From positions 256,001 to 320,000 of the forward strand of contig CAXXMV010000003.1 of the NCBI GenBank assembly GCA_963662285.2: a DNA stretch of 64,000 nucleotides, written 5' to 3'. Shown in pieces: positions 1,241-51,662 of this stretch. Positions within the stretch are counted from its first letter, which is position 1; every line of letters begins with the position of its first letter. Position numbers and translations under genes: made by a program. Under the pieces are notes generated by a model that searched no databases, was not told the DNA's origin, and saw nothing but the letters and a program-made list of their open reading frames with translations. This DNA comes from a bacterium (GTDB taxonomy: Bacteria > Hinthialibacterota > Hinthialibacteria > Hinthialibacterales > Hinthialibacteraceae).

Positions 1241-2218
1241 CTACTTCGGAAACAACAGATCAACATCGCACTTCTTTTTCTTCTTCATACTCGTCGTTTC
1301 TATCCCCTGAGAGACGGTAGCTTTCCGTACGCAAGGCGCCGACAACATAATGGCTTTGGGATCAATCTCTTCCAATTCGAGTCTACTAAGCGCCGCCCGG
1401 CAATATTCTGGATTCAGGTCGATGCCGATATAATTGCGCCCCAGCGCTTCAGCCGCCACGCAGGCGGCCCCGGTTCCATTGAACATATCCAATACGATAT
1501 CGCCTTCAAATCCGGCTTCGACGCATCGGCCAAAGCTATACATCATGATCAACCGCTGCGGTAATGATACCGGAAAAGGGCAGGGATGCCCGCCGGATCG
1601 TTTAATGTCAGCTGGATATATCGGCCATACCTGCATAGTCAGGTTGCGCCATTCTTCCTGAGTAATCCTGCTGGCTTCCTTTGCTTCTTTTTCAATGCCC
1701 GGAGGCGCTCCTTCTTTAACGAAAACATTAATAAATTCTATAGTGTTATCTTCATATAAATTAGGCGGATAAGGATAACTGCCGAACATCTTAACCGTGG
1801 TCTGCTTTTGCCAGACGAACAAACTATATCGATTAAATCCTTCAAGATTACTCAATATGGATTGCTCAATATCGCTGCTGATATTCTTAAGATGCCGCGT
1901 GTGCTGATCATTGATAATCTTTTTAGGAATCGGCATAATCGGCGTCACAATTGCCAACTTCCCGTTAGGTATCAAAATCCGCTGCGTCTCGCGCCAAATC
2001 TCCAGCAGGTCGCTGATATAGGTTTCGTAATCAGTATGCCCCAACTGCCCGGCATGGTCGTAATCGATCACGTCCCAATAGGGTGGACTGGTAACCGCCA
2101 GCGCCACGCACTGATCCGGCAGACGCCGTAAGGTCTTCAATGTGTCCGCTTGAATAACCTGATTGACGAATTCTTGCGGCCAGTTATCTTGATTTGGAAT
2201 ACGGTGGTTTTGATTCAT
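1241..2218 (-). CDS. Site-specific DNA methyltransferase, beta class (N4-C/N6-A)
   Basis: Catalytic motif VTSPPY precedes HPCPFP and the SAM-binding DMFNGTG...YIGIDLN. Confidence 0.9.
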   Translation of the reverse strand: MNQNHRIPNQDNWPQEFVNQVIQADTLKTLRRLPDQCVALAVTSPPYWDVIDYDHAGQLGHTDYETYISDLLEIWRETQRILIPNGKLAIVTPIMPIPKKIINDQHTRHLKNISSDIEQSILSNLEGFNRYSLFVWQKQTTVKMFGSYPYPPNLYEDNTIEFINVFVKEGAPPGIEKEAKEASRITQEEWRNLTMQVWPIYPADIKRSGGHPCPFPVSLPQRLIMMYSFGRCVEAGFEGDIVLDMFNGTGAACVAAEALGRNYIGIDLNPEYCRAALSRLELEEIDPKAIMLSAPCVRKATVSQGIETTSMKKKKKCDVDLLFPK

Positions 2219-2233
2219 TTGATGTAAGATAAT

Positions 2234-3421
2234 TTAGTTTTTATCAAGGGATTTCATATAAATATATGTGCGGGTAAGCCAGTCGCGGAAAATATATTCT
2301 CCACGCTGACGTTGAGTTATTACATTCAGTTTCTTCATGCGTTGAATAAAATTATCAAACTTTCTCTTTTCATTTTCATTCAGTTTTTTTACAATATCAC
2401 TTTTTTTGAAACTCAATTCAAGGCGATCTTCAGCAATCTTTTTTAGTATTCTATGATAATCCTGACTTTGAAGCGCTTTATAAACTTGTTGATCAACAAA
2501 TTTTCTTCCAACTTCTTCTGATGCTGCAACTACCGCTCTTTGAGCAACATCTTTATTGATGAAATTACTGTCCGTTATCCAAAACGCCGCTTCACCAAGT
2601 AAATGCAGTAATTTTGGCAGACCTCCTGAATATTTTGATAATATTTTCAGAGCGTTTTCATCAAGTTTCATATCTACTTTGTTGAATGCATTAAGAAAAA
2701 ATTCATTGCTCTCTTCGTTGCTCATTATTTCGATCTGCGATATTTCAAATATTCGCTCCACTGGCTGGTGCTTTTCAACGATGGTTCTATATTTTTCATC
2801 CGTACCGCACAGGATTAATAATAACGGTAGTGGAGAAGCGCTTATGGCATTTTCATCAACCATAGATTTTATAAATTGAGCGAATTTTGATTGGTTGGAG
2901 ATGCCGTTTATCTCATCAAATACCAGGATAATTCCATTGTATTCGTCTTGAATTCTTTTATATATTTCGCCAAGAAAAGCCAGGAAGCCTTCCCGAATAT
3001 CAGGTGAATCCTTTTTTAATTTATCCAGTTTAATAGATATGCCAAAAAGAGATTGCTCTCCAATATAGGTAGATAAAAAATCTTGGATTTTCTCAGCGAC
3101 GGTTGGTTTTGAAATTTTAGACTGAATGATTGTCTGCACTACGGAAGCCGTCATTTCATCCAAAGAATCCTTGCCGCCCAGCATCACATGATAACTTAAT
3201 AGTTTATATTTCTCTTCGGCCAGAACGCTGCTATATTTAGCCAGTGATGTTTTCCCGATGCCATATTCACCCATAATAAAAACTGCTTGCGGTTTTCCAG
3301 TTGCCACTTGTGAAGCAGCGCGGGATATACGTTGAATTTCGGTCTTCCGACCCACAAAAAGATCAACCGGAACCGGCAATCCCGGATAAAATGGACTCTG
3401 ACCCTTTTCTTCAAAATTCAT
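2234..3421 (-). CDS. P-loop ATPase (AAA_16/ATPase_2, archaeal-type, STAND-like) with probable C-terminal winged helix
   Basis: PF.PG.P...FVGR.E N-terminus, Walker A GEYGIGKTS, Walker B LVFDE, SGGLP motif; RBS gaggag. Confidence 0.85.
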   Translation of the reverse strand: MNFEEKGQSPFYPGLPVPVDLFVGRKTEIQRISRAASQVATGKPQAVFIMGEYGIGKTSLAKYSSVLAEEKYKLLSYHVMLGGKDSLDEMTASVVQTIIQSKISKPTVAEKIQDFLSTYIGEQSLFGISIKLDKLKKDSPDIREGFLAFLGEIYKRIQDEYNGIILVFDEINGISNQSKFAQFIKSMVDENAISASPLPLLLILCGTDEKYRTIVEKHQPVERIFEISQIEIMSNEESNEFFLNAFNKVDMKLDENALKILSKYSGGLPKLLHLLGEAAFWITDSNFINKDVAQRAVVAASEEVGRKFVDQQVYKALQSQDYHRILKKIAEDRLELSFKKSDIVKKLNENEKRKFDNFIQRMKKLNVITQRQRGEYIFRDWLTRTYIYMKSLDKN

Positions 3422-6515: not shown

Positions 6516-8021
6516 TGTAAAGGCCTGGGACATGGGTAACAGGTGTTCGGGGACATAGGTAACACATTTTCTGAGTGTATTCTAGCCTTGAAAGGAGGCG
6601 AAGAATATGCCCTGGAACGAGGTGGACCTTATGTCTCTGAGAAAAGAATTCGTATTGTTGAGCCAGCAAGAAGAAAGCAACATCAGCCAATTATGTAAAC
6701 GGTTTGATATCAGCCGTAAGACGGGTTACAAATGGATCAAACGGTACAAAGAAGGAGGAGGCGAAAATCTCCAAGACCGTTCCAAAAAACCCAATACTTG
6801 CCCTCATCAAACAGATAAGTCTATCGAGCAAGCCATTACAGAAAATCGCGAAAAAGGATGGGGAGGACGCAAAATTCGCTCTCGTCTGATTCAATTGGGA
6901 TACGAAAATGTTCCTAGCGCCAGCACTATTACTGCCGTGTTACGCCGACTGGGATTGCTGGATGAAAAGGAAAGTCACAAGCACAAAGCCTATAAGCGTT
7001 TTGAAAAAGATACGCCCAACGAATTGTGGCAAATGGATTTCAAAGGAGATTTTCCCACGCTCAAAGCACGCTGTTATCCGCTCAGCATTCTGGATGATTG
7101 CACGCGCTTTGTTCCCGGATTATTTTCGTGCGCCAATCAGCAAAGGGAAACCGTGCAAGACTCCCTGGAAAGCGTGTTCAGGATGTATGGTATGCCTCGG
7201 GCGATGTTGATGGATAACGGAAGTCCGTGGGGAGGATGCAAAACCTGCGAATACACCAGATTGACAATATGGCTGATACGATTGGGTATTCGCGTGTATC
7301 ACGGTCGCCCCTACCATCCGCAAACCCAAGGCAAGGTCGAGCGATTTCACCGGACCTTTAAGCAAGAATTGCTGATAAGGGAATCGTTTGTGGATTTGGA
7401 ATATTGCCAAAGGCGGTTTGATGAGTGGCGTTATGAATACAATTTTGAGCGTCCTCACGAAGCCCTGGATATGGATGTCCCGGCTAACCATTATACGTCC
7501 AGTCCTTTTGTTTATCCGGGAAGTTTGCCGGATATCGAGTACGCGCCGGGCAGCATTATCAGGAAGGTGCAACAAGGAGGTCGGGTGGCGTACCGTGGTG
7601 AAGATTACCGGGTGAGCCGCGCCCTGGTAGGATGCCCGGTTGCCTTGAAACCCGCTATGACCGATGGGATGATGGACGTATATTTTTGCCGACAAAAAAT
7701 CAAGACGCTCGATCTGCGTTTGAATGAAATCAAAGAAGATAACTTGGCAATCCAGAAAAAGGCGTCACAATAGAAATTGGTTGGGCGAAACGGAAGCGGG
7801 CGCTGCAGGAGTGCAACCCGCCAGGGATAGCCGATCCGAGGTGCGAGGGATAATGCAGGAGGTGAAATATTCACCTCCTCCCTCTAAGCCAACCAATTAT
7901 CCTGAGCATCTCTAGATGCCTAAAAAAAAACTCAAACAATAACCTGGGATAAATCCGGTTTTGATAAAAAACTGTAACCCATGTCCCCGAACATGTGTTA
8001 CCCATCTACCCGGTCTGTACA
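6516..8021 (+). mobile_element. IS481-family insertion sequence, complete, with GGGAG target duplication
   Basis: TGT...ACA ends; ~50-bp imperfect terminal inverted repeats (tgtaaaggcctgggacatgggtaacaggtgttcggggacataggtaaca vs reverse complement of right end tgtacagaccgggtagatgggtaacacatgttcggggacatgggttaca); gggag at 6511-6515 and 8022-8026. Confidence 0.93.
6607..7773 (+). CDS. IS481-family DDE transposase
   Basis: MPW start, HTH ISRKTGYKW, WQMDFKG, DNGSPW, HPQTQGKVERFH, YNFERPHEAL. Confidence 0.95.
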   Translation: MPWNEVDLMSLRKEFVLLSQQEESNISQLCKRFDISRKTGYKWIKRYKEGGGENLQDRSKKPNTCPHQTDKSIEQAITENREKGWGGRKIRSRLIQLGYENVPSASTITAVLRRLGLLDEKESHKHKAYKRFEKDTPNELWQMDFKGDFPTLKARCYPLSILDDCTRFVPGLFSCANQQRETVQDSLESVFRMYGMPRAMLMDNGSPWGGCKTCEYTRLTIWLIRLGIRVYHGRPYHPQTQGKVERFHRTFKQELLIRESFVDLEYCQRRFDEWRYEYNFERPHEALDMDVPANHYTSSPFVYPGSLPDIEYAPGSIIRKVQQGGRVAYRGEDYRVSRALVGCPVALKPAMTDGMMDVYFCRQKIKTLDLRLNEIKEDNLAIQKKASQ

Positions 8022-41180: not shown

Positions 41181-41486
41181 TAAATTATCTCCAATCAAAA
41201 AAAATATGTTATTGCGTTTGTCTTTGAATTACTTTATTTTATATCCAAGACAAGAGATTGGCTACTCGACTAGCGGTTATACTTTATCTAAGTTAATCTA
41301 GTTTGATGTAAATAGCTGATTTTTAATTAAAATATGCGAAATTATTTGAATAATTATTGATATTAATTGCATTTTGAAATAATTGCATCTTATAAAATAC
41401 ATTATTACTACGTTATGAATCCGGGAAGGTTCTTGATTAGGCAAAATATTTATAAGTATATTCATAACATCAGAGGAGAAAACGCG

Positions 41487-43112
41487 ATGAAAGTTAACTG
41501 GAATATCGAAAAACACGCGTTATGTTTGCTAAAGTCATCTTTTTTGCTGTGCGCTTTACTGTTAATAATCCAAAGCGTCACGGCGGGGGGGGCGTTTGAT
41601 AATTTCCTCAAAGCGGAACGAAATGGCTGGCAGGCTCAAAAAGCCTTTCAAAAATGCATGAATTTTACTTATGGTTGGCTGGGACATCGCGACCCGCGCT
41701 CAGGCTTGATTCCAAGAAATCTTAACAGGGATAATTTTTGGAACGCGCAGGATTCCGCCGCCGATAACTATCCCTTCATGGTGCTCACTGCATCTTTATT
41801 GAACCGGGAGTTGTTCAAGGGAACCATGCTTGACATGCTGGAGAGCGAAATCATCCGAACTAATCGTCTGGATAACCTGCCTGACGATTTCGATTTCGCC
41901 ACTCAAAAATTCCGTCTTGCCGAAATTGATATGAATCACTTAATCTTCGGCGGTTCTGAATATGTAAAAGATGGATTGATACCATTAACCGAATGGATGG
42001 GGCCAAGCCCCTGGTCGAGCCGTATGATCGGCATCCAGGATTCCATCTGGAAACATGCCGCCATCAATACGCCTTATGGTAAGATTCCCTCGATTAATCA
42101 TGAAATTAATGGAGAACAATTGCAGGTCTTATGCCGTTTATACTGGATGACTGGCGATGAACGTTATAAAGAATGGGCTTTCCGCTTAGCGGATTACTAT
42201 CTGTTGGAACATCTACCAACCGATAATGATAACCTGAGCCTTGACGATCATGGCTGTGAAATCATCGGCGGCTTGGCAGGTGGATATTTCCTGGCGGCTC
42301 ATACTGACGCTGAGCGACGCGAAAAATACCGCGCCCCGATTCACCGCCTGCTGGATCGCATATTGGAAATAGCTATCAATGAAGACGGCCTGTTCCACAT
42401 GGTGGTTAATCCCCAAACTGGCGAAGTAAAAAAAGAGGAATTGACCGACAATTGGGGATATGACTATAACGCCGTCCTTAATGTCGCGCAATTGGATGAT
42501 GTAGACCATTATTACGAAGCCATGCGCCATGTATTGGATAATATTAATAAATACGTCTATTACCCCTGGGAAAACGGTGGTTCCGATGGATACGCCGACT
42601 CCATAGAAGGCGGATTGAATCTGCTCAACCGTATTCCCAATCCCAAAGGTTTCCAGTGGGTGGATGACAGTATGGAAATCCTACTGGCCAAACAGCGTGA
42701 AGATGGAGTTATTGAAGGCTGGCATGGCGATGGCAACTTCGCCCGAACCGCTCTGATGTACGCCCTATGGAAAACCCAAGGCGTTCATCTGGTTGATTGG
42801 AGAGCCGATTTGGCCTTTGGCGCTGTTGTGGATCAAGGTTCGCTATATCTATCGATCCAAGGCGATTGGAAATGGTCCGGTCTAGTGAAATTTGATATCG
42901 CCCGGCACAAGGTCTATTTTAAGTTGCCATCCGATTATCCAAGAATTAACCAATTCCCTGAATGGTTTACAGTTGACGCAGGTAAATCTTATAAAGTATG
43001 CATCAATGGCGCGGAGGAAATAACCAAAACTGGCCAGGAACTGATAACAGGTTTGCAAATATCAACCAAAGCGGGCGTTCCCGTAAACATTAAAGTCTCG
43101 CCAGCTGAATAA
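41487..43112 (+). CDS. Secreted hypothetical protein, alpha/alpha-barrel glycosidase-like
   Basis: RBS gaggag before ATG 41487; signal peptide; conserved-looking DSAADNYPF, DHGCE, IEGWHGDGNFART. Confidence 0.65.
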   Translation: MKVNWNIEKHALCLLKSSFLLCALLLIIQSVTAGGAFDNFLKAERNGWQAQKAFQKCMNFTYGWLGHRDPRSGLIPRNLNRDNFWNAQDSAADNYPFMVLTASLLNRELFKGTMLDMLESEIIRTNRLDNLPDDFDFATQKFRLAEIDMNHLIFGGSEYVKDGLIPLTEWMGPSPWSSRMIGIQDSIWKHAAINTPYGKIPSINHEINGEQLQVLCRLYWMTGDERYKEWAFRLADYYLLEHLPTDNDNLSLDDHGCEIIGGLAGGYFLAAHTDAERREKYRAPIHRLLDRILEIAINEDGLFHMVVNPQTGEVKKEELTDNWGYDYNAVLNVAQLDDVDHYYEAMRHVLDNINKYVYYPWENGGSDGYADSIEGGLNLLNRIPNPKGFQWVDDSMEILLAKQREDGVIEGWHGDGNFARTALMYALWKTQGVHLVDWRADLAFGAVVDQGSLYLSIQGDWKWSGLVKFDIARHKVYFKLPSDYPRINQFPEWFTVDAGKSYKVCINGAEEITKTGQELITGLQISTKAGVPVNIKVSPAE

Positions 43113-43165
43113 GTCCGTGTTGATGAGTTATACAAAAAGTATTAGTTCTGAATAAATATTGAACG

Positions 43166-43205
43166 ATATGTACTTGAAAGGTTTGAAAATCTTTCAAGTA
43201 CATAT
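43166..43205. terminator. Long hairpin / probable terminator
   Basis: atatgtacttgaaag-gtttgaaaat-ctttcaagtacatat. Confidence 0.55.
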
Positions 43206-43288
43206 TTGTTATTGCGCTAATTTCAGTTTAACCTATAATGTAATTGTTTCTATCTTAAATCTTTTTAATTAAATGGGATATAAACTGT

Positions 43289-44299
43289 ATGTTTATTAAG
43301 GCAATCACGATGGTAAAGTTGAATTATTCTTATAAAAGTTTTCTTATAGTAACTGGTGGATTGCTTTTCACCATTATACTGTCTGGTTGCGTGACTACCG
43401 GGGGTTCTATTCAAGCCAATTACTCAAACATCAGCCAGTTGGAAGAAGCCGATAACTTGTTTGATAATGAGAAATACCAGACCGCTTTGCTGAAATATTC
43501 CAGTTACGTATTTTCTCCATTCCCTAATAAAAAGCATGAGGATTACGCTTATTACAAACTCGCCTTGTGTCATTATCTGCTGGGGCAATATTATGACGCC
43601 CAAAAAACAGCAGAGATTCTAGTTCAAACTTATCCCAAATTTGAATATAGCGAGCAAGCCAATGATCTGCTGGCCAAGAGCGATAATAAGATCAATGAAC
43701 GTAAAATTGAGTTCTCCAAACAATGGAATGAGCTATTAAAGGAAATCGAAAAAACAACTCAACTTGCCGCGCAAAATCCTGATAGTGCTGAGCATCAGTT
43801 CAAATTGGGCGATCTTTATTGGGATGCGGGTAAGTACGGTGACGCAGTCCGGCAATATGAAAAAGCGGCTCAGCTGGACAAAGCCTATTTAGAAAAAAAA
43901 AACTTGCGTACCAGGGTTCGCATCGATCAATCTGGTGAATTCCTGATTCGCGATCCCATGTATCAACACATAGAAAAGCCAGCCCCTGTCAGGGTTACGC
44001 AGGTTCGGCGGGATCGCATCACCCGTGAAGACTGGTTGGGTGAGTATGAAGCGTTGAGACTGAGCGGTTATGTTGAGAATGATGGTCTCTATGATGTAAA
44101 TAATGTGCAGGTGGAAATAGCCATCTATGATTTTTTTGATACAATTCAGGAAACTAAACTGGTTAATATTGGCGCTCTGCAAGCTGGCGGACGAAGACCC
44201 TTTACCGTCATGTTCAACCAATACCGTGATATGGCTATCGATATAATGAAATATACTACTGAGATTTTTTTTGATGAATCTGCGGCGGCCCGGCGATGA
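43289..44299 (+). CDS. TPR lipoprotein (BamD/pilotin-like) with C-terminal FxLYD-like domain
   Basis: Lipobox LSGC; TPR motifs AYYKLALCHY and QFKLGDLYWDAGKY; G.VEN.G...V.NVQVEIAIYD...L.AG..RPF. Confidence 0.75.
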   Translation: MFIKAITMVKLNYSYKSFLIVTGGLLFTIILSGCVTTGGSIQANYSNISQLEEADNLFDNEKYQTALLKYSSYVFSPFPNKKHEDYAYYKLALCHYLLGQYYDAQKTAEILVQTYPKFEYSEQANDLLAKSDNKINERKIEFSKQWNELLKEIEKTTQLAAQNPDSAEHQFKLGDLYWDAGKYGDAVRQYEKAAQLDKAYLEKKNLRTRVRIDQSGEFLIRDPMYQHIEKPAPVRVTQVRRDRITREDWLGEYEALRLSGYVENDGLYDVNNVQVEIAIYDFFDTIQETKLVNIGALQAGGRRPFTVMFNQYRDMAIDIMKYTTEIFFDESAAARR

Positions 44300-44358
44300 T
44301 TTTGATGGGTTATTTTATGAAACATATTAATGGAAGATATTTTCACGAGCATAATACT

Positions 44359-45468
44359 ATGAGAAATCCCCTTATGTCATGCAAAAGATTTACTGCTTCG
44401 TTTTTGATAATCGGGATTCTACTTGTTTTTTCTTTCTCCTCTGATGCGCAAATAAAAATCGCACGAGATCCAAAGTTTGCCTTGCCAGCCAATGCAATGA
44501 CAGACTTGATTAAACATTATGAAGATAAACCTGATGGACCCTATCAGGTGATGGTTGAAATTATTATCTTCGAAGTCTTCATGCGTAATGAAGATAAAAT
44601 CGGATTTGTTTACAATATTCTGGGGGAAGTCGGCGAATTCCGCGGTAACAACCTTAATGGTCTTGCTTCCACCGAAAGTGATCTTAGCGTTTTAGGCAGC
44701 GGCGGTAGGGATTTATTATTGCCATCAGGTTTGAATATTGTATCCAATATATTTGAAAGTAACGATGAAGACCGGGTTGAAGCGGTTATCCAGGCTCTTG
44801 CAGAAGATCAGACGGTTCAAGTCTATTCTAATCCCAGGCTTTTAACCCTGGATGGCGTACCAGCCCGTTTGGAAACCGGTGAAGAGATCCCCTTTCTTGA
44901 ACGTAAAAATCTTGGTACCAGCGAAACCTTTTCAACTAATTTCAGAAAATCCGGCGTTACTATGCAGATTACGCCCTTTGTGAGATTCACTGAAACTGAC
45001 ATCCAAAGAAAAAAACCTTATATAATCGTGGACTTGGATGTCAGCCTTTCCAGCATTTCCCGTTATCGCGAAGAAGAAGGTTTTACTCAACCTATTGTTG
45101 ATGATAGGAACTTAACAAATCGTGTGACATTAAAGGCCGGACAACGAATTATTGTCGCCAGTCTTTACCGGGATACTCAAGAGAATACCATGCGCGGCAT
45201 TCCCATTTTGAAGGATCTTCCCGTTCTGGGTAGATTATTTAAGGGGACCACTAATATGAATCAGATTTCGCAGTTATTCATTATGGTGAAACCTGATCTT
45301 TTTGATTATTCCGGAGAACTATTACAAAAAACAGGCGTACTGAATCCTGAACAGGAATCCAAGGGATTTAGAAAGATTCTGGAAAAACGCACCCAGGCTC
45401 TTGATGGGCGTTCAGGACCTTTTGAAGAATTTAGATCACTATTTCTTGATCGTAATACTCCGCGATAA
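44359..45468 (+). CDS. Secretin-family protein 1, no N-domains
   Basis: QVMVEIIIFEV, IQALAED...YSNPRLLTLDG.PA..ETGEEIPF, GV.MQITP, GIPILKDLPVLGRLFK; start uncertain (44296-44374). Confidence 0.85.
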   Translation: MRNPLMSCKRFTASFLIIGILLVFSFSSDAQIKIARDPKFALPANAMTDLIKHYEDKPDGPYQVMVEIIIFEVFMRNEDKIGFVYNILGEVGEFRGNNLNGLASTESDLSVLGSGGRDLLLPSGLNIVSNIFESNDEDRVEAVIQALAEDQTVQVYSNPRLLTLDGVPARLETGEEIPFLERKNLGTSETFSTNFRKSGVTMQITPFVRFTETDIQRKKPYIIVDLDVSLSSISRYREEEGFTQPIVDDRNLTNRVTLKAGQRIIVASLYRDTQENTMRGIPILKDLPVLGRLFKGTTNMNQISQLFIMVKPDLFDYSGELLQKTGVLNPEQESKGFRKILEKRTQALDGRSGPFEEFRSLFLDRNTPR

Positions 45469-45493
45469 ATATAGGATATTCGAATTTAAAATC

Positions 45494-46609
45494 ATGATTG
45501 TAAACCTGGTTAACCTCATAATAAATAATTCAGCTAGAAGAACTCTGGTTAGAAATTTCTATTTAAGCATATTTATATTATGCCTGTTTCCTCTGATCTC
45601 TTCAACTCAGGATATTAGTCCGGTAATTCAGATATCGGCTAATGTTTATGTATATCGATTGGATGGAGAGAAACAACTTGGTTTATTCTATCAATACAAC
45701 AGGACAAGCGGATCAGTTCAAAATAGTGATGTGTTTCTTCATGGAACTGAGAATGTTAATGAACAGGCCATCGGTGCGCTCGATATATCCGGCAGTTTCG
45801 CCACTCTCAAATATGGATCAATTGATTACAACTTAAAGACTGCAATTGAAGAAGGACACGCAACTTTAATAAATCATCAGAGAGCCATTGTCTCTGACGG
45901 GGAACATTTTTCATTCTCTGCTGGTGAAAAGGTTCCTTTAACCAAAGTTGTAATGAAGGGTAATAATATAACCCTAGATACTGAAGAGCGGCCTGTAGGC
46001 ATAAAACTAAATGGAACTCCCCGTATTTTTCGCGGTGATAATATAATCATGGATTTGGAAATTGAATCCAGTGAAATCACCCAAATTAATACTTTCGACC
46101 GTGGTGACGAAAAAAGATATACTCTTCCGGTTATTGCCAAACGAAATATAAAAACTGTGGTAATCGTTCCCTCGGATCGTCCGGTTTATATAGGTGGTTT
46201 ATATACGGATACTACTGGAGATTTAACCAGAAAAGTTCCAATTATTGGTGATCTGCCGATAATTGGCTTCTTCTTAAGAGGATTCAATAAAAGCCGGCGC
46301 CAGTCTGAAACTATTTTTAGAATTACTCCTGTTATTAAAAAGCCCGGTGAAGGTCTGGATATTGGATCATCTATTTTTGAAGAACTTTTGCAACCGGAAG
46401 GCGACTTATCATTAATTCAACAAACCGGCGTCCGTGAAAAAAGTACTGAAGCGAACAGTTCATCAATAATTACGCCTGCAACATCCACCCTTATGGTTCC
46501 TTCACCGCTGATTAAGATGGCTACTGAAGTTGTGAATCAAAAAAAGCCTGAGACAAATAAATCCACCGGGGCAAATAAGAAATCATCTAAAAGGTGGAGT
46601 AATAAATAA
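45494..46609 (+). CDS. Secretin-family protein 2, no N-domains
   Basis: AGEKVP, VGIKLNGTPRI, IAKRNIKTVV, IGGLY, KVPIIGDLPIIGFFLR, ETIFRITP; start uncertain. Confidence 0.82.
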   Translation: MIVNLVNLIINNSARRTLVRNFYLSIFILCLFPLISSTQDISPVIQISANVYVYRLDGEKQLGLFYQYNRTSGSVQNSDVFLHGTENVNEQAIGALDISGSFATLKYGSIDYNLKTAIEEGHATLINHQRAIVSDGEHFSFSAGEKVPLTKVVMKGNNITLDTEERPVGIKLNGTPRIFRGDNIIMDLEIESSEITQINTFDRGDEKRYTLPVIAKRNIKTVVIVPSDRPVYIGGLYTDTTGDLTRKVPIIGDLPIIGFFLRGFNKSRRQSETIFRITPVIKKPGEGLDIGSSIFEELLQPEGDLSLIQQTGVREKSTEANSSSIITPATSTLMVPSPLIKMATEVVNQKKPETNKSTGANKKSSKRWSNK

Positions 46610-46674: not shown

Positions 46675-48987
46675 TCATTGCAATGCTGGTGGATCAACTT
46701 TTTCTCCCTTGATCTGCGCCAGTTGTTCATCTTCTGAATAAGTTCCATAAAACGATGCGTTGCCGTCCAGCCATAGATAAAGCCGCTTCATTTCATCATT
46801 ATTCAATTTGACCATATTTCTCTTAATATGATTACTGATAATCCCAGTGAGAGGGCTATTATCAGAAGGCATCTCTTCAGGCAGCGTAACTGTTTGACGA
46901 ATGCTGCTATCGCCCCACTCATACCATTTAACATAAGGTTTAAGAGTATGATACGATACTAAAAAGCCGTCTTTTTCTGCTCCGCAAAGATTGGGGCGCT
47001 TTTCATTCTTTCCTTTGCCGTCATGGCATCCAACGCAGTGCTGGTCGAGAATCGGTTGAACCAGACGCGAATAGTTCCAGGGTAGGGAACCATCAGGTCC
47101 CGGTTTTATCTGAGAAGGTTTTCGTTTAAATGCGATGGGCTGAGTATTCCTGGCAACCGTTCCCGGAGTTTCATGGCACCCGACGCAGCCCCGCTGTTCT
47201 CCCGGTTGAAGATAAATCAGGCTGCGCATCCCCTGAACCGCCTTGCCATTATCATCTATGGCTTGGAATAATATTGGCTTACTGGCGGGAACGCGGAAAA
47301 AGGCTGAACCATCTTTTTCGACCGGAACTGAACCAAGCAGCATTCGGGCTGATTCAGCATTAGCGTAACCCAGTCTCGGTTTGTTAGCTACATGAGTCTC
47401 GCTTTTTGGTAATATCTGAAAGATGTTTAAGGTTTTAATCTTTCGGGCGCCGGATTTTTCATAAAGACTGGTATTGATATCTGAAAGTAATAATTCCCCT
47501 TCATTTTCTAAATTTGAGTCCAAAGCTGAAGGTACAACCGGAGGAACGGTTCTCGGCGCCAGAGGTATGGGGTACATAGAGGAGATGCCTTCTTCTCTAT
47601 AAAGCAGTTCCATATTGCCGAAGCGGTCAAACAGGTATAGACCGGTAGTGGTATCTTCATCAACATGCGGACCCATTCCCGGCAGTGGATCGAAACTGAA
47701 GGAGACCAGATAATAATTCTCTGATAATGGCCAGGGGCTATGGAAATAACTGTTAGGCCATCCATTGGCTTCTGGAAAACAGACTTCAGGGGTCAGTAAT
47801 TCCAATGAGCTGAAATCATCTTCTCCAGTCTTTTTGTGAATCTTAATTTTTGTAGGATCAACCACCACCAACGAACCGCCTACATCTGCATGATGCGCTC
47901 CAGCCACAAAAACGATTTTGTTTGATCCTGGAATCGCTCTGGGCTGGTAACAGGCGTTTAGATTCTTGGTGTAATTTCCAAACAGTATTGATGGATTAGA
48001 ACCATCAGGATTGCTGATCCATAATCCATGGAAATTGGCTGCAGAGCGGTCTATGTAATCCCATCTTGTATAGACGATGCGTCCATCATGGAGCACGCTG
48101 GGGTGCCATTCATTGGTTTCATGGAAGGATAGCGTCTTGATATTTTGACCATCACTCTTCATGCGATGCAACGTATAGCAGGGCAGAGGTTCCCAGGGAT
48201 TATGGCATCTACCGAAGCCGCCGCGCCGCGTCGACATGAATGCAACATCCCCGCCGGGTAATTCGCACGGATCGAAATCATCGTATATTCCGTCAGTTAA
48301 TTGCTTGAGATTGCCGCCATTACAGTCCATGGAGTATATATGGAAACATTTTCGCTGGTCTGAATAATAATCCGGCTTTTGTTCCGCCCGTTCTGCGAAG
48401 GCGAAATAGATAGACTTGGCGTCATAGGATAGTGATAGAGTGGTGAAATTGCCTTTGGGCAAGCGATGCTTAGTCAGATCGCTGGTTTGCATGGAGTAAC
48501 CCGGATTATCCAGTTTATAAACTCCGCCGCCAGAGATGTCTCTGTAATCATAAAAATAACCCAGATATTCATGGAGCATTTGGCAGATAAAACGGCGGCG
48601 TTTGAGGAAAACAATTGGCGATGATTCAATTAGAGGATTCTGGAAGGATATATCACGGATTAACCATCGAATCTGCTTGTACAAAGCAAACCGTTCGGCT
48701 TCATCCATAGATTCAAGATTATTGATCTGTTTTTTATAGATTTTAAATAACTCAAACTCTATTTCCAGATTCAACTCGCTTGATTCCGATAAATCAACCA
48801 GGAGTTTTTCGCATCTTTCCAATGATTCATAAATAGCTATTAAATCCGACGAGGAGCGTCCTTTTCTTTCTTCCTGTAATTGCCAATCATATTCAATGGC
48901 TGATCTGAATTTATCAGAAATGGAATAACAAATCTGGCAAGTTACAAAACAGCAGCAAGCAGTGATGAGTAGACGTGAAAACCGCAT
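46675..48987 (-). CDS. Secreted beta-propeller protein with hydrazine synthase alpha-like middle domain and two c-type heme motifs
   Basis: DDFDPCELP, EWHPSVLHDGRIVYTRWDY, PVEKDGSAFFRVPA, QPGEQRGCVGCHE, HCVGCHD. Confidence 0.8.
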   Translation of the reverse strand: MRFSRLLITACCCFVTCQICYSISDKFRSAIEYDWQLQEERKGRSSSDLIAIYESLERCEKLLVDLSESSELNLEIEFELFKIYKKQINNLESMDEAERFALYKQIRWLIRDISFQNPLIESSPIVFLKRRRFICQMLHEYLGYFYDYRDISGGGVYKLDNPGYSMQTSDLTKHRLPKGNFTTLSLSYDAKSIYFAFAERAEQKPDYYSDQRKCFHIYSMDCNGGNLKQLTDGIYDDFDPCELPGGDVAFMSTRRGGFGRCHNPWEPLPCYTLHRMKSDGQNIKTLSFHETNEWHPSVLHDGRIVYTRWDYIDRSAANFHGLWISNPDGSNPSILFGNYTKNLNACYQPRAIPGSNKIVFVAGAHHADVGGSLVVVDPTKIKIHKKTGEDDFSSLELLTPEVCFPEANGWPNSYFHSPWPLSENYYLVSFSFDPLPGMGPHVDEDTTTGLYLFDRFGNMELLYREEGISSMYPIPLAPRTVPPVVPSALDSNLENEGELLLSDINTSLYEKSGARKIKTLNIFQILPKSETHVANKPRLGYANAESARMLLGSVPVEKDGSAFFRVPASKPILFQAIDDNGKAVQGMRSLIYLQPGEQRGCVGCHETPGTVARNTQPIAFKRKPSQIKPGPDGSLPWNYSRLVQPILDQHCVGCHDGKGKNEKRPNLCGAEKDGFLVSYHTLKPYVKWYEWGDSSIRQTVTLPEEMPSDNSPLTGIISNHIKRNMVKLNNDEMKRLYLWLDGNASFYGTYSEDEQLAQIKGEKVDPPALQ

Positions 48988-49948: not shown

Positions 49949-51662
49949 TCATGCATTCTTTTGAATTTTTTTCCACGAATCGCGTAGAGTTGCGGTTCTG
50001 TTGAAAACCAGATTATCCTGAGTTGAATCCTGATCAACGCAGAAATAACCCAATCTTTCGAATTGACAACTGTATCCCGGTTCTACTGAAGCCAGTGATG
50101 GTTCGAGATAGCATTCAGTTAAGGTCTTCAATGAATCGGGATTAAGGTTATCTTTCCAATCAGCGCCCTCTGCAACAGCAAGAGGATTCTCGTTCGTAAA
50201 GAGATAATCGTATAGATTAACTGTGGCTTTGACGGCATGTTGAGCCGATACCCAGTGGATGGTTCCTTTAACCTTGCGGCCATCGGGAGCATCTCCTCCA
50301 CGGGTGGCGGGATCATAGGTGCAATGAATTTCCACAATCGCACCGTTATCATCTTTCACCACGTCCTGACAGGTCAAGAAGTAGGCGTAGCGGAAACGCA
50401 CTTCACGCCCGATGCCCAGACGGAAGAATTTACGCGGCGGATTCTCCATGAAGTCGTCGCGTTCAATATATAGTTCGCGTGAGAATGGAACTATGCGTGA
50501 ACCGGCTGTTGGGTCTTCGGGATTATTTATAGCGTCAAGTTCATCAACTTGATTTTCCGGGTAGTTTGTTATAACAACTTTAATTGGATCCAACACGGCC
50601 ATAACGCGGGGAGCGATCTTGTTGAGATGTTCGCGCAGGCAATGCTCCAGCTGTTGGATTTCAATAGTGCCATCGCTTTTACTGACTCCAACGCGCCGGC
50701 ATAATTCAAGGATGGCTTCCGGTGTATAGCCGCGACGGCGCATTCCACAGAGGGTTGGCAGTCTGGGATCATCCCAACCGCTGACGCAGCCTTGTTCGAC
50801 CAGTTCCCGCAGATAGCGTTTGCTGAGAACGGTATAAGTAAGATTCAAGCGTCCGAATTCATACTGTTTGGAAGGGAATATGCCCAGCTGTTCGATGAAC
50901 CAATCGTAAAGTGGTCTATGATTGGCGAAACCGATGTCACAGATGGAATGAGTCACCTTCTCGATAGAGTCGGATTGACCATGGGTCCAATCGTACATCG
51001 GATAAATGCACCATTTATCACCCGTGCGGTAATGATCGGTATGAATGATGCGGTACATCACCGGGTCGCGCATGTTGAGGTTGGGATGCGCCATATCTAT
51101 TTTAGCGCGCAGGGTTTTTGATCCATCGGGGAACTCACCATCACGCATACGCTGGAAAAGGTCGAGATTCTCTTCTACAGAACGGCTGCGGTAGGGGCTA
51201 TTTTTACCCGGAGGGGTTTCCCGTTTTGCCATCCTCTCCAAAACCGGCGGTGCCGCGATACTCACGAATCTCGTCTTCGTTGAGGTCGCAGACGTAGGCC
51301 GCGCCCTTTTTAATCAGTTCAACCGCCCAGTCGTAGAGTTGATCGAAATAATCTGATGCGTAATAAAGCCGGTCTTCCCAATCGAAGCCCAGCCACTTTA
51401 TATCTTTCTGGATGGCGTCGACGTATTCGGTCTTCTCTTTAGCCGGATTGGTGTCGTCGAAACGCAGGTTGTATTTTCCATTGAACGCTTCCGCAATTCC
51501 ATAGGTAATGCTTATCGCCTTGGCATGACCGATATGAAGATAACCGTTCGGCTCAGGAGGGAAGCGGGTATGCACGCGACCCTCATGCAGTCCGGCTTCA
51601 ACATCGGCTTGGACGATATCTCGGATAAAATTGGAAGGGGATTTAATTTCGTTATCTGACAT
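49949..51662 (-). CDS. glnS: Glutamine--tRNA ligase, split by a +1 frameshift near 51204-51232
   Basis: 5' ORF has [17 protein letters not shown] and RFDDTNP; 3' ORF has [40 protein letters not shown]. Confidence 0.92.

Follow-up and report, generated by a model that had tools for sequence, protein, structure and literature searches.

Can a secretin work alone, how would its gate then open, and can mixed secretin rings form? These questions are raised by a barrel-only, duplicated secretin module with a dedicated lipoprotein and no motor nearby, which lies in a 64,000-nucleotide (nt) stretch of the genome of a bacterium of the phylum Hinthialibacterota (assembly GCA_963662285.2, contig CAXXMV010000003.1, positions 256,001 to 320,000; we refer to this whole stretch as the window). 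Secretins are described as homo-oligomeric exits of type II secretion systems (T2SS), type IV pili (T4P), Tad systems, type III secretion systems (T3SS) and filamentous-phage machines, and their N-domains are regarded as coupling and gating parts. An earlier reading of this DNA from its letters alone (the sequence-only reading) had reported three closely linked, co-oriented genes for a tetratricopeptide repeat (TPR)/FxLYD lipoprotein and two secretins, here called A and B; the list of open reading frames (ORFs), Pfam and NCBIfam all place this trio exactly where it had been put, at window positions 43289-46609. We conclude, with a probability of roughly 0.55, that the trio is an operon that builds a pilotin-assisted, stand-alone secretin pore without N-domains, leaving its cargo and gating aside.

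Domain content and structure of secretins A and B

PF00263 matches secretin A at residues 167-335 (E 5.7e-32) and the product of the third ORF, secretin B, at residues 150-312 (E 5.2e-30), both far above the 27.5-bit cut-off, and none of PF03958, PF21305 and PF13629 matches either protein in the Pfam scan; the presence of PF00263 and the absence of PF03958 are as had been anticipated. The hallmarks of the secretin C-domain, also noticed before, are read in both translations: TGEEIPF and GIPILKDLPVLGRLF in secretin A, AGEKVPL and KVPIIGDLPIIGFFL in secretin B. Only the C-terminal parts of the NCBIfam models for GspD, PilQ, MshL and SctC match the two proteins, far under the cut-offs: A and B reach 113.7 and 78 bits with the GspD equivalog TIGR02517 (cut-off 351.35), and 99.7 and 81.1 bits with the PilQ model TIGR02515 (cut-off 284.35). 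The combination of PF13629 and a tad operon, which marks the Tad secretin RcpA/CpaC, is not seen for A or B; the Tad secretin of the same genome has PF13629.

AlphaFold2 (AF2) models of A and B were built from alignments of 45 and 26 orthologues, and their mean predicted local distance difference test (pLDDT) values are 68.8 and 70.3. The model of secretin A consists of a signal helix, a short helix (46-55), strands at 63-315 and C-terminal helices at 330-348 and 354-362. Along the ORF of 390 amino acids (aa) this corresponds to a signal peptide to about residue 51 followed by one short helix, a barrel at about residues 81-339 (nt 44536-45312, plus strand; from Pfam, AF2 and structural alignment) and two predicted helices at residues ~351-383 that resemble an S-domain; these helices are conserved, with a consensus of PFExFRELFxDR. 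In secretin B the predicted barrel directly follows the signal peptide (about model residues 41-299, nt 45614-46390, plus strand), the model showing a signal helix, strands at 44-282, a short helix and a disordered tail from residue 303. This tail (nt 46400-46606, plus strand) makes up the last ~70 residues, ends in a basic cluster and is rich in Ser/Thr/Lys, as had been noticed from the sequence.

All Foldseek matches of the two models with E <= 1e-10 are secretins (e.g. PilQ, 6w6m, at E 2e-19). With VIA-align, residues 60-318 of A and 41-309 of B align to GspD of enterotoxigenic Escherichia coli (5zdh) from its residue 319 on (Z 14.3 and 14.2), and the alignment to Vibrio cholerae GspD begins at residue 316 (Z 14.1-14.3 across the GspD matches). 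Since GspD residues ~316-319 are the start of the secretin domain, there is no N-domain ahead of the barrel. Profile searches of the PDB with A and B, which pick up XcpQ from residue 308 and ExeD from residue 296, agree with the structural alignment, and neither Pfam nor AF2 finds N0 or N3 domains ahead of the barrel in A, B or their orthologues; the lack of N-domains first proposed from the sequence is thus upheld by Pfam, models and structural alignment alike. Longer N-termini hidden by frameshifts are excluded, because the same short N-termini recur in orthologues from 25 other independent assemblies. As modelled, the complete secretin domain is the only folded part of A and of B.

Loss of all N-domains, with no cargo or motor gene nearby, might also be expected if A and B were no longer an open channel and formed a structural outer-membrane ring or anchor, e.g. 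what is left of a degenerate Tad secretin that serves envelope architecture. We consider this very improbable, as neither paralogue has lost the hallmarks or any part of the barrel in five families, where identity is 22-64%, and the structural alignment spans GspD from residue 316 to about 600.

Conservation of the trio and the lipoprotein link

The trio is encoded on the plus strand by three ORFs that overlap or nearly abut. The lipoprotein gene (43289-44299, 336 aa) has a stop that overlaps the start of the secretin A gene (ATGA). Secretin A (44296-45468) has 390 aa as the longest ORF, with M22 or M27 as its likely start, and secretin B (45494-46609) has 371 aa from the ATG at 45494, which is followed by a signal peptide; the ORF is open from a TTG at 45401 (402 aa), and the ATG is likely the real start. 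Overlaps of 4-8 nt between trio genes, seen in the window and in many relatives, suggest coupled translation. A hairpin with a 19-bp stem (43165-43206, plus strand; a candidate terminator from a consensus scan only) lies between the upstream gene, which ends at 43112, and the lipoprotein gene, so the trio is probably its own transcription unit. All sampled 31-mers of the window are found in an independent contig set, which may be the source sample.

We examined 35 genomes of the Hinthialibacterota, in six families (here f1-f6); the window genome has 7.29 Mb in 8 contigs. An orthologue of secretin A (E <= 1.7e-83) is found in 18 out of 19 other genomes of the family, the exception being 82% complete, and the lipoprotein profile matches 26 of the 35 phylum genomes (17/19 in f1, 4/4 in f2, 2/2 in f3, 1/1 in f4, 1/1 in f6 and 0/7 in f5). 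The trio is found in five of the six families (it is absent from f5), and the order lipoprotein-secretin-secretin is observed in 24 out of 25 relatives' loci, in one of them with the lipoprotein gene cut by the contig start; the 25th locus runs off its contig inside secretin A. Only the three trio genes are common to the surroundings of the locus in all families compared, and within f1 an upstream gene for a 581-aa exported protein, trxB and mlaEFD are syntenic as well. The trio is a self-contained module whose genes are inherited together. Synteny, which the sequence-only reading had named as a check, bears out a conserved unit, and in all 25 relatives' loci the trio lies outside ordinary T2SS, T4P or Tad loci. 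In f1, secretin B has a long disordered tail that ends in a basic, aromatic cluster.

A tree of 50 secretin-domain rows (11 of 25 A and 11 of 26 B proteins, six other secretins of the genome and 22 database secretins) was computed by a quick method, with support given by the Shimodaira-Hasegawa-like approximate likelihood ratio test (SH-aLRT) only. Nine out of 11 rows of secretin A form a clade (SH-aLRT 98), as do 10 out of 11 rows of secretin B (SH-aLRT 93; inner node 96); the most distant rows of both (from f4 and f6) have no firm placement, and the tree does not resolve the relation of A to B. The internal branching of the two clades is identical, indicating that A and B have co-diverged; the two secretins, described from the sequence as highly divergent from each other, indeed make separate clades with matching branching. 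When the B profile is used for searching, distant A proteins score (about 1e-46) above any other secretin.

The lipoprotein has an LSGC lipobox with Cys34 (nt 43388-43390, plus strand, read in the translation), and this lipobox is kept in 23 out of 24 aligned orthologues, the Cys column being nearly invariant. Profile matches place BamD/YbgF-like TPR pairs and a coiled region at about residues 44-200: 11 Pfam TPR-type families match (best E 2e-08), the N-terminal half weakly resembles BamD/YbgF in NCBIfam, and PDB profile matches include 9hiv_D, 2xev and 9cmw. An FxLYD beta domain follows at residues 256-311 (nt 44054-44221, plus strand; NCBIfam FxLYD_dom NF038353, 32.6 bits, cut-off 23). TadD is not found among the best 60 of 310 PDB matches of the lipoprotein profile. 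A lipobox and TPRs, encoded together with a secretin, are what is expected of a TPR lipoprotein pilotin; the trio lipoprotein has all of these, its gene overlapping that of secretin A, and we infer by analogy with TadD, PilF and Y4yS that it is probably the pilotin of A and B.

A search of 1.84 billion representative proteins with the B profile gave 47,504 matches at E <= 0.001; among the best 150 of these 47,504, beyond the orthologues, is a series of short secretins whose barrel begins within the first 5-40 residues. Two metagenomic B-type secretins without N-domains, P0117 (420 aa) and P0120 (454 aa), have an FxLYD domain fused at the C-terminus (NCBIfam FxLYD scores of 39.3 and 41.2 bits, cut-off 23). 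They are 36% identical to each other, and P0117 is 55% identical to secretin B of f6. A hidden Markov model (HMM) of the FxLYD region of the lipoprotein matches only these two out of 258 collected proteins (E 4.7e-23 for P0117 and 1.3e-14 for P0120); that is, the FxLYD domain can sit on a secretin's own C-terminus. The fused form was not found in the 35 phylum genomes, no contig carrying P0117 was confirmed in a metagenome scan, and a word search with its FxLYD tail matched only P0117. Two TPR-secretins among the matches, P0048 and P0041, do have N-domains, and the lipoprotein gives only a generic TPR match to the TPR region of P0048 (hhalign probability 73%).

In a further scan of one genome for each species, with four short secretins as queries, 80 loci were retained. 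Nearly all of these encode ordinary long secretins; two loci, L080 and L077, both from outside the Hinthialibacterota, encode short ones. L080, from a metagenome-assembled genome (MAG) titled Caldisericota, encodes a 305-aa homologue of the lipoprotein (family profile E 7.5e-37 over positions 44-309; FxLYD HMM E 6.6e-16; NCBIfam FxLYD 19.3 bits, under the cut-off), followed in the operon by two small exported proteins, a single 287-aa secretin without N-domains and a Wzy_C-TPR membrane protein. The pairing of the lipoprotein with a single secretin indicates that it is older than the A/B duplication. The lipoprotein-secretin link proposed from the sequence thus gains from two sides, the fusions of FxLYD to B-type secretins and the same lipoprotein beside a single N-domain-less secretin. 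In L077, two TPR-like genes are followed by an OmpH-like gene and then by that of a 291-aa N-domain-less secretin. In both loci a small exported, weakly OmpH/Skp-like protein is encoded directly upstream of the single secretin (L080:4597-4941 and L077:4332-4730); the trio itself has no OmpH/Skp-like gene.

The Wzy_C neighbour brings in a question of cargo: the same stand-alone pore might export a glycan, a slime polymer or a glycosylated product from an O-antigen-ligase-like (Wzy_C) membrane protein. In L080 the Wzy_C gene is directly downstream and co-oriented (L080:5887-7545, 81 bits); a Wzy_C gene adjoins secretin B, convergently, in six out of 18 f1 loci (L043, L046, L048, L051, L054 and L056; two of the six above the Pfam cut-off); glycosyltransferase genes are found 9-14 kb upstream of the trio in the window; and secretins are reported as slime nozzles (PMC12475490). 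However, the window genome has its Wzy_C homologue on a different contig (C7), close to a T2SS cluster, the arrangement in f1 may be plain synteny next to groESL, and such a neighbour is not seen in the f2, f3, f4 and f6 loci. A glycan cargo is one weak option, and we think it quite unlikely to be the right one.

Motor systems and the case for a stand-alone pore

The window genome has eight PF00263 matches and 11 T2SSE ATPases in a profile search of its contigs. In Pfam scans of eight 20-kb regions, three of the clusters found are T2SS-like, a split secretin occurring in one of them, and there is one each of the Tad, T4P-like and pilMN-secretin kinds; a pilB/pilT cluster that lies apart is plausibly served by the pilMN-secretin one. 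Each of the six other secretins is accompanied by its own T2SS, T4P or Tad genes. All 14 Secretin_N matches belong either to the genes of these secretins or, on contig C1, to the N-part of the split T2SS secretin, leaving no spare N-domain protein for the trio, and no separate N-domain gene of the RhcC1 kind was found for it in the whole genome. Around the trio, contig C3 has no T2SSE match, a Pfam scan of the other 41 large ORFs of the window gave neither an ATPase nor a platform protein of secretion or pilus systems, and there are no gsp genes in the window and no pilMNOP genes nearby. The first two of these results agree with the sequence-only reading, which had seen no motor genes of T2SS, T4P, Tad or T3SS flanking the locus. 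The flanks examined in the 25 relatives' loci have no motor gene either.

Without N0-N3, A and B could not dock in any known way to an inner-membrane platform of the GspC, PilP or RcpC type, which makes a stand-alone conduit for periplasmic cargo most likely. Under this reading the three genes would form one operon whose products build an outer-membrane pore, a gated beta-barrel of secretin type that has no periplasmic N-domain rings. The lipoprotein would serve as pilotin or dock, in the manner of TadD, PilF, Tgl and Y4yS; it may hold the secretins at their C-terminal ends, which in A are the helices resembling an S-domain and in B the tail, the position of FxLYD in the fusions, and would then surround the barrel on its outer side. 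Both secretins may descend from one N-domain-less secretin that was duplicated, the L080 lineage showing the single state, and would act together, either mixed in one ring or in two rings that are obligately expressed together.

Sharing of one hetero-oligomeric ring by A and B is plausible, judging from their sequences and genes: they co-occur strictly, have co-diverged, appear to be translationally coupled and have complementary C-termini. The fuller picture of a motor-independent channel, with A and B alternating in such a ring, the TPR-FxLYD lipoprotein on its periphery and a single-secretin ancestral form in other uncultured lineages, is a doubtful one in all its parts together; if true, secretins would have their first heteromeric example, and secretion or uptake could proceed with neither a type-IV-filament nor a type III machine. 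A complex prediction for lipoprotein 35-336, A 31-369 and B 40-305 (the tail of B cut off) scored 0.00 in two runs without controls, and bears neither way. As a whole, the sequence-only proposal of a minimal, possibly hetero-oligomeric secretin pore with the lipoprotein as pilotin or as a replacement of N-domains in trans holds in part: the loss of N-domains, the conserved unit, the absence of an ordinary T2SS, T4P or Tad locus and the lipoprotein-secretin link stand, and the mixed ring stays at plausible.

Several points weigh against a stand-alone pore. In known secretins it is a filament or needle, powered at the inner membrane, that opens the gate; we know of no means by which a stand-alone secretin pore would open, and of no hetero-oligomeric secretins. 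The confidence of the A and B models is moderate (pLDDT about 69-70), and the phylum label of L080 may be unreliable, as it comes from a binned MAG. The tree places A and B beside the Tad secretin of the genome with weak support (SH-aLRT 88), and apart from its T2SS and T4P secretins, which makes descent from a Tad module likely. Both the trio and the Tad ATPase are missing from f5, a single shared absence, to be taken as one event only. Several GspE-type ATPases are encoded in each of the phylum genomes, which leaves room for a distant motor partner.

The last three points also speak for a different reading, in which A and B serve a type-IV-filament machine with genes elsewhere (Tad-like or GspE-driven) as its exit through the outer membrane, the filament opens the gate, the lipoprotein is an ordinary pilotin and another periplasmic protein replaces the N-domains. 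One orthologue is labelled CpaC in its source record, and the Tad locus has no TPR pilotin gene of its own (Pfam scan), as would fit. We nevertheless regard such a remote machine as possible but unlikely, since every motor locus found in the genome has its own secretin and no motor gene is seen in the flanks of the 25 loci. At E <= 1e-80, 22 of the 35 genomes have a Tad ATPase, among them the one f1 genome that lacks the trio, and six trio-bearing genomes, including G004 and G007 (96% complete), give no match at this threshold; the Tad system is thereby weakened as an obligate partner. An orphan 879-aa protein that joins N-terminal TPRs to a GspE/PilB-type ATPase and has no secretion genes as neighbours (G000:C2:31654-34290, i.e. 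L071:9655-12291, minus strand), was rejected as partner, because it is found in full length only in f1 and f3 and not in the trio-bearing f2, f4 and f6.

The stand-alone, pilotin-assisted pore would matter in several ways. The FxLYD domain gains its first functional context, an association with the secretin C-terminus, and the three genes, being small and self-contained, are amenable to heterologous co-expression. In open-access papers and preprints we found no description of stand-alone secretins without N-domains, of paired secretin paralogues or of the FxLYD domain; looking for heteromeric, orphan, truncated or split secretins in the open-access literature gave only the Rhc split secretin and general secretin work, and the word secretin is absent from the description of Hinthialibacter.

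Other secretins of the genome also have unusual forms. The secretin of the pilMN cluster (contig C8, L069:9426-12596, minus strand) has 1057 aa with a long N-terminal TPR region, and adjoins a PilM-PilN fusion, a pilin-like gene and a FliG paralogue; the pilB/pilT/pilB ATPases that match this cluster are on contig C6 at 1.588-1.592 Mb. One T2SS secretin on contig C1 is split into a 485-aa protein with N0 and three Secretin_N domains (L064:13049-14503) and a 414-aa C-part (L064:14521-15762) that has its own signal peptide, a Gly-rich linker, an N3-like remnant (seen by eye) and the barrel. The same secretin is split in three out of three relatives checked (L072, L073 and L074, from families f1, f2 and f5), so this split is real and phylum-wide.

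As to the other genes of the window, the exported 581-aa protein encoded upstream of the trio (41367-43112, plus strand) has no Pfam or NCBIfam family, only a marginal GH76 match (E 0.0034); it was rejected as a conserved cargo, being beside the trio only in f1, and could be a lineage-specific cargo or mere synteny. Convergent with secretin B is a gene for a 770-aa exported protein with a hydrazine-synthase-alpha middle domain (46675-48987, minus strand; PF18582, E 6.6e-27), which is not kept beside the trio in relatives. Further downstream, glutaminyl-tRNA synthetase is encoded in two overlapping frames (49952-51662, minus strand), which is a frameshift, either real or an assembly error: 51207-51662 matches positions 2-110 of the PF00749 profile and 49952-51265 matches positions 107-313. 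Signs of mobile or defence DNA at the left end of the window are an rve-type integrase/transposase gene (6607-7770, plus strand) and a DNA methylase gene next to that of a BrxC/D-like ATPase (1244-3421, minus strand).

Comparison with known secretin systems

The closest arrangement is that of RcpA and TadD of Pseudomonas aeruginosa (PDB 8odn). According to PMC10499894, TadD is a TPR outer-membrane lipoprotein that acts as pilotin of a small secretin, RcpA, whose C-terminal end is bound in the TPR groove, and RcpA lacks N3 as well; 8odn is among the structural matches of both secretins (Z 13.0 for A and 12.4 for B). However, RcpA has a VirB9-like N-domain and is encoded in a tad operon with RcpC, an ATPase and a platform, whereas the trio has no N-domain, no tad genes, two paralogous secretins and an FxLYD domain on its lipoprotein. 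PilF, PilW, Tgl and Y4yS are argued to be secretin pilotins in PMC4311626, which also gives PilF/PilW/Tgl as TPR lipoproteins needed for secretin multimerisation.

In the rhizobial-type T3SS, the C-part of the secretin is encoded alone (RhcC2), and the adjacent gene for the TPR lipoprotein Y4yS affects its abundance (PMC3574062 and PMC4311626). Unlike in the trio, the N-part is encoded by a second gene, RhcC1, and all of these genes are in a T3SS cluster (PMC3574062). The split T2SS secretin of the window genome is the T2SS counterpart of this RhcC1/RhcC2 split.

PilQ structures are among the top structural matches of A and B, but PilQ has AMIN, N0 and N3 domains and is located in pilMNOPQ. 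The best barrel matches in both sequence and structure are GspD/PulD/XcpQ (5zdh, 6hcg and 5wln), and the C-terminal helices of secretin A appear to be placed like the S-domain; GspD, in contrast to A and B, has N0-N3. To our knowledge, the pilotins GspS and AspS are not TPR proteins. The smallest well-studied secretin, pIV of filamentous phages (7ofh), is similar to secretin A (Z 14.1, root-mean-square deviation 3.9 over 171 residues). It has N0 and N3, and works with phage inner-membrane proteins. The trio is set apart from known secretins by four features together: the full absence of N-domains, the lack of a motor context, an obligate pair of paralogues and the FxLYD domain.

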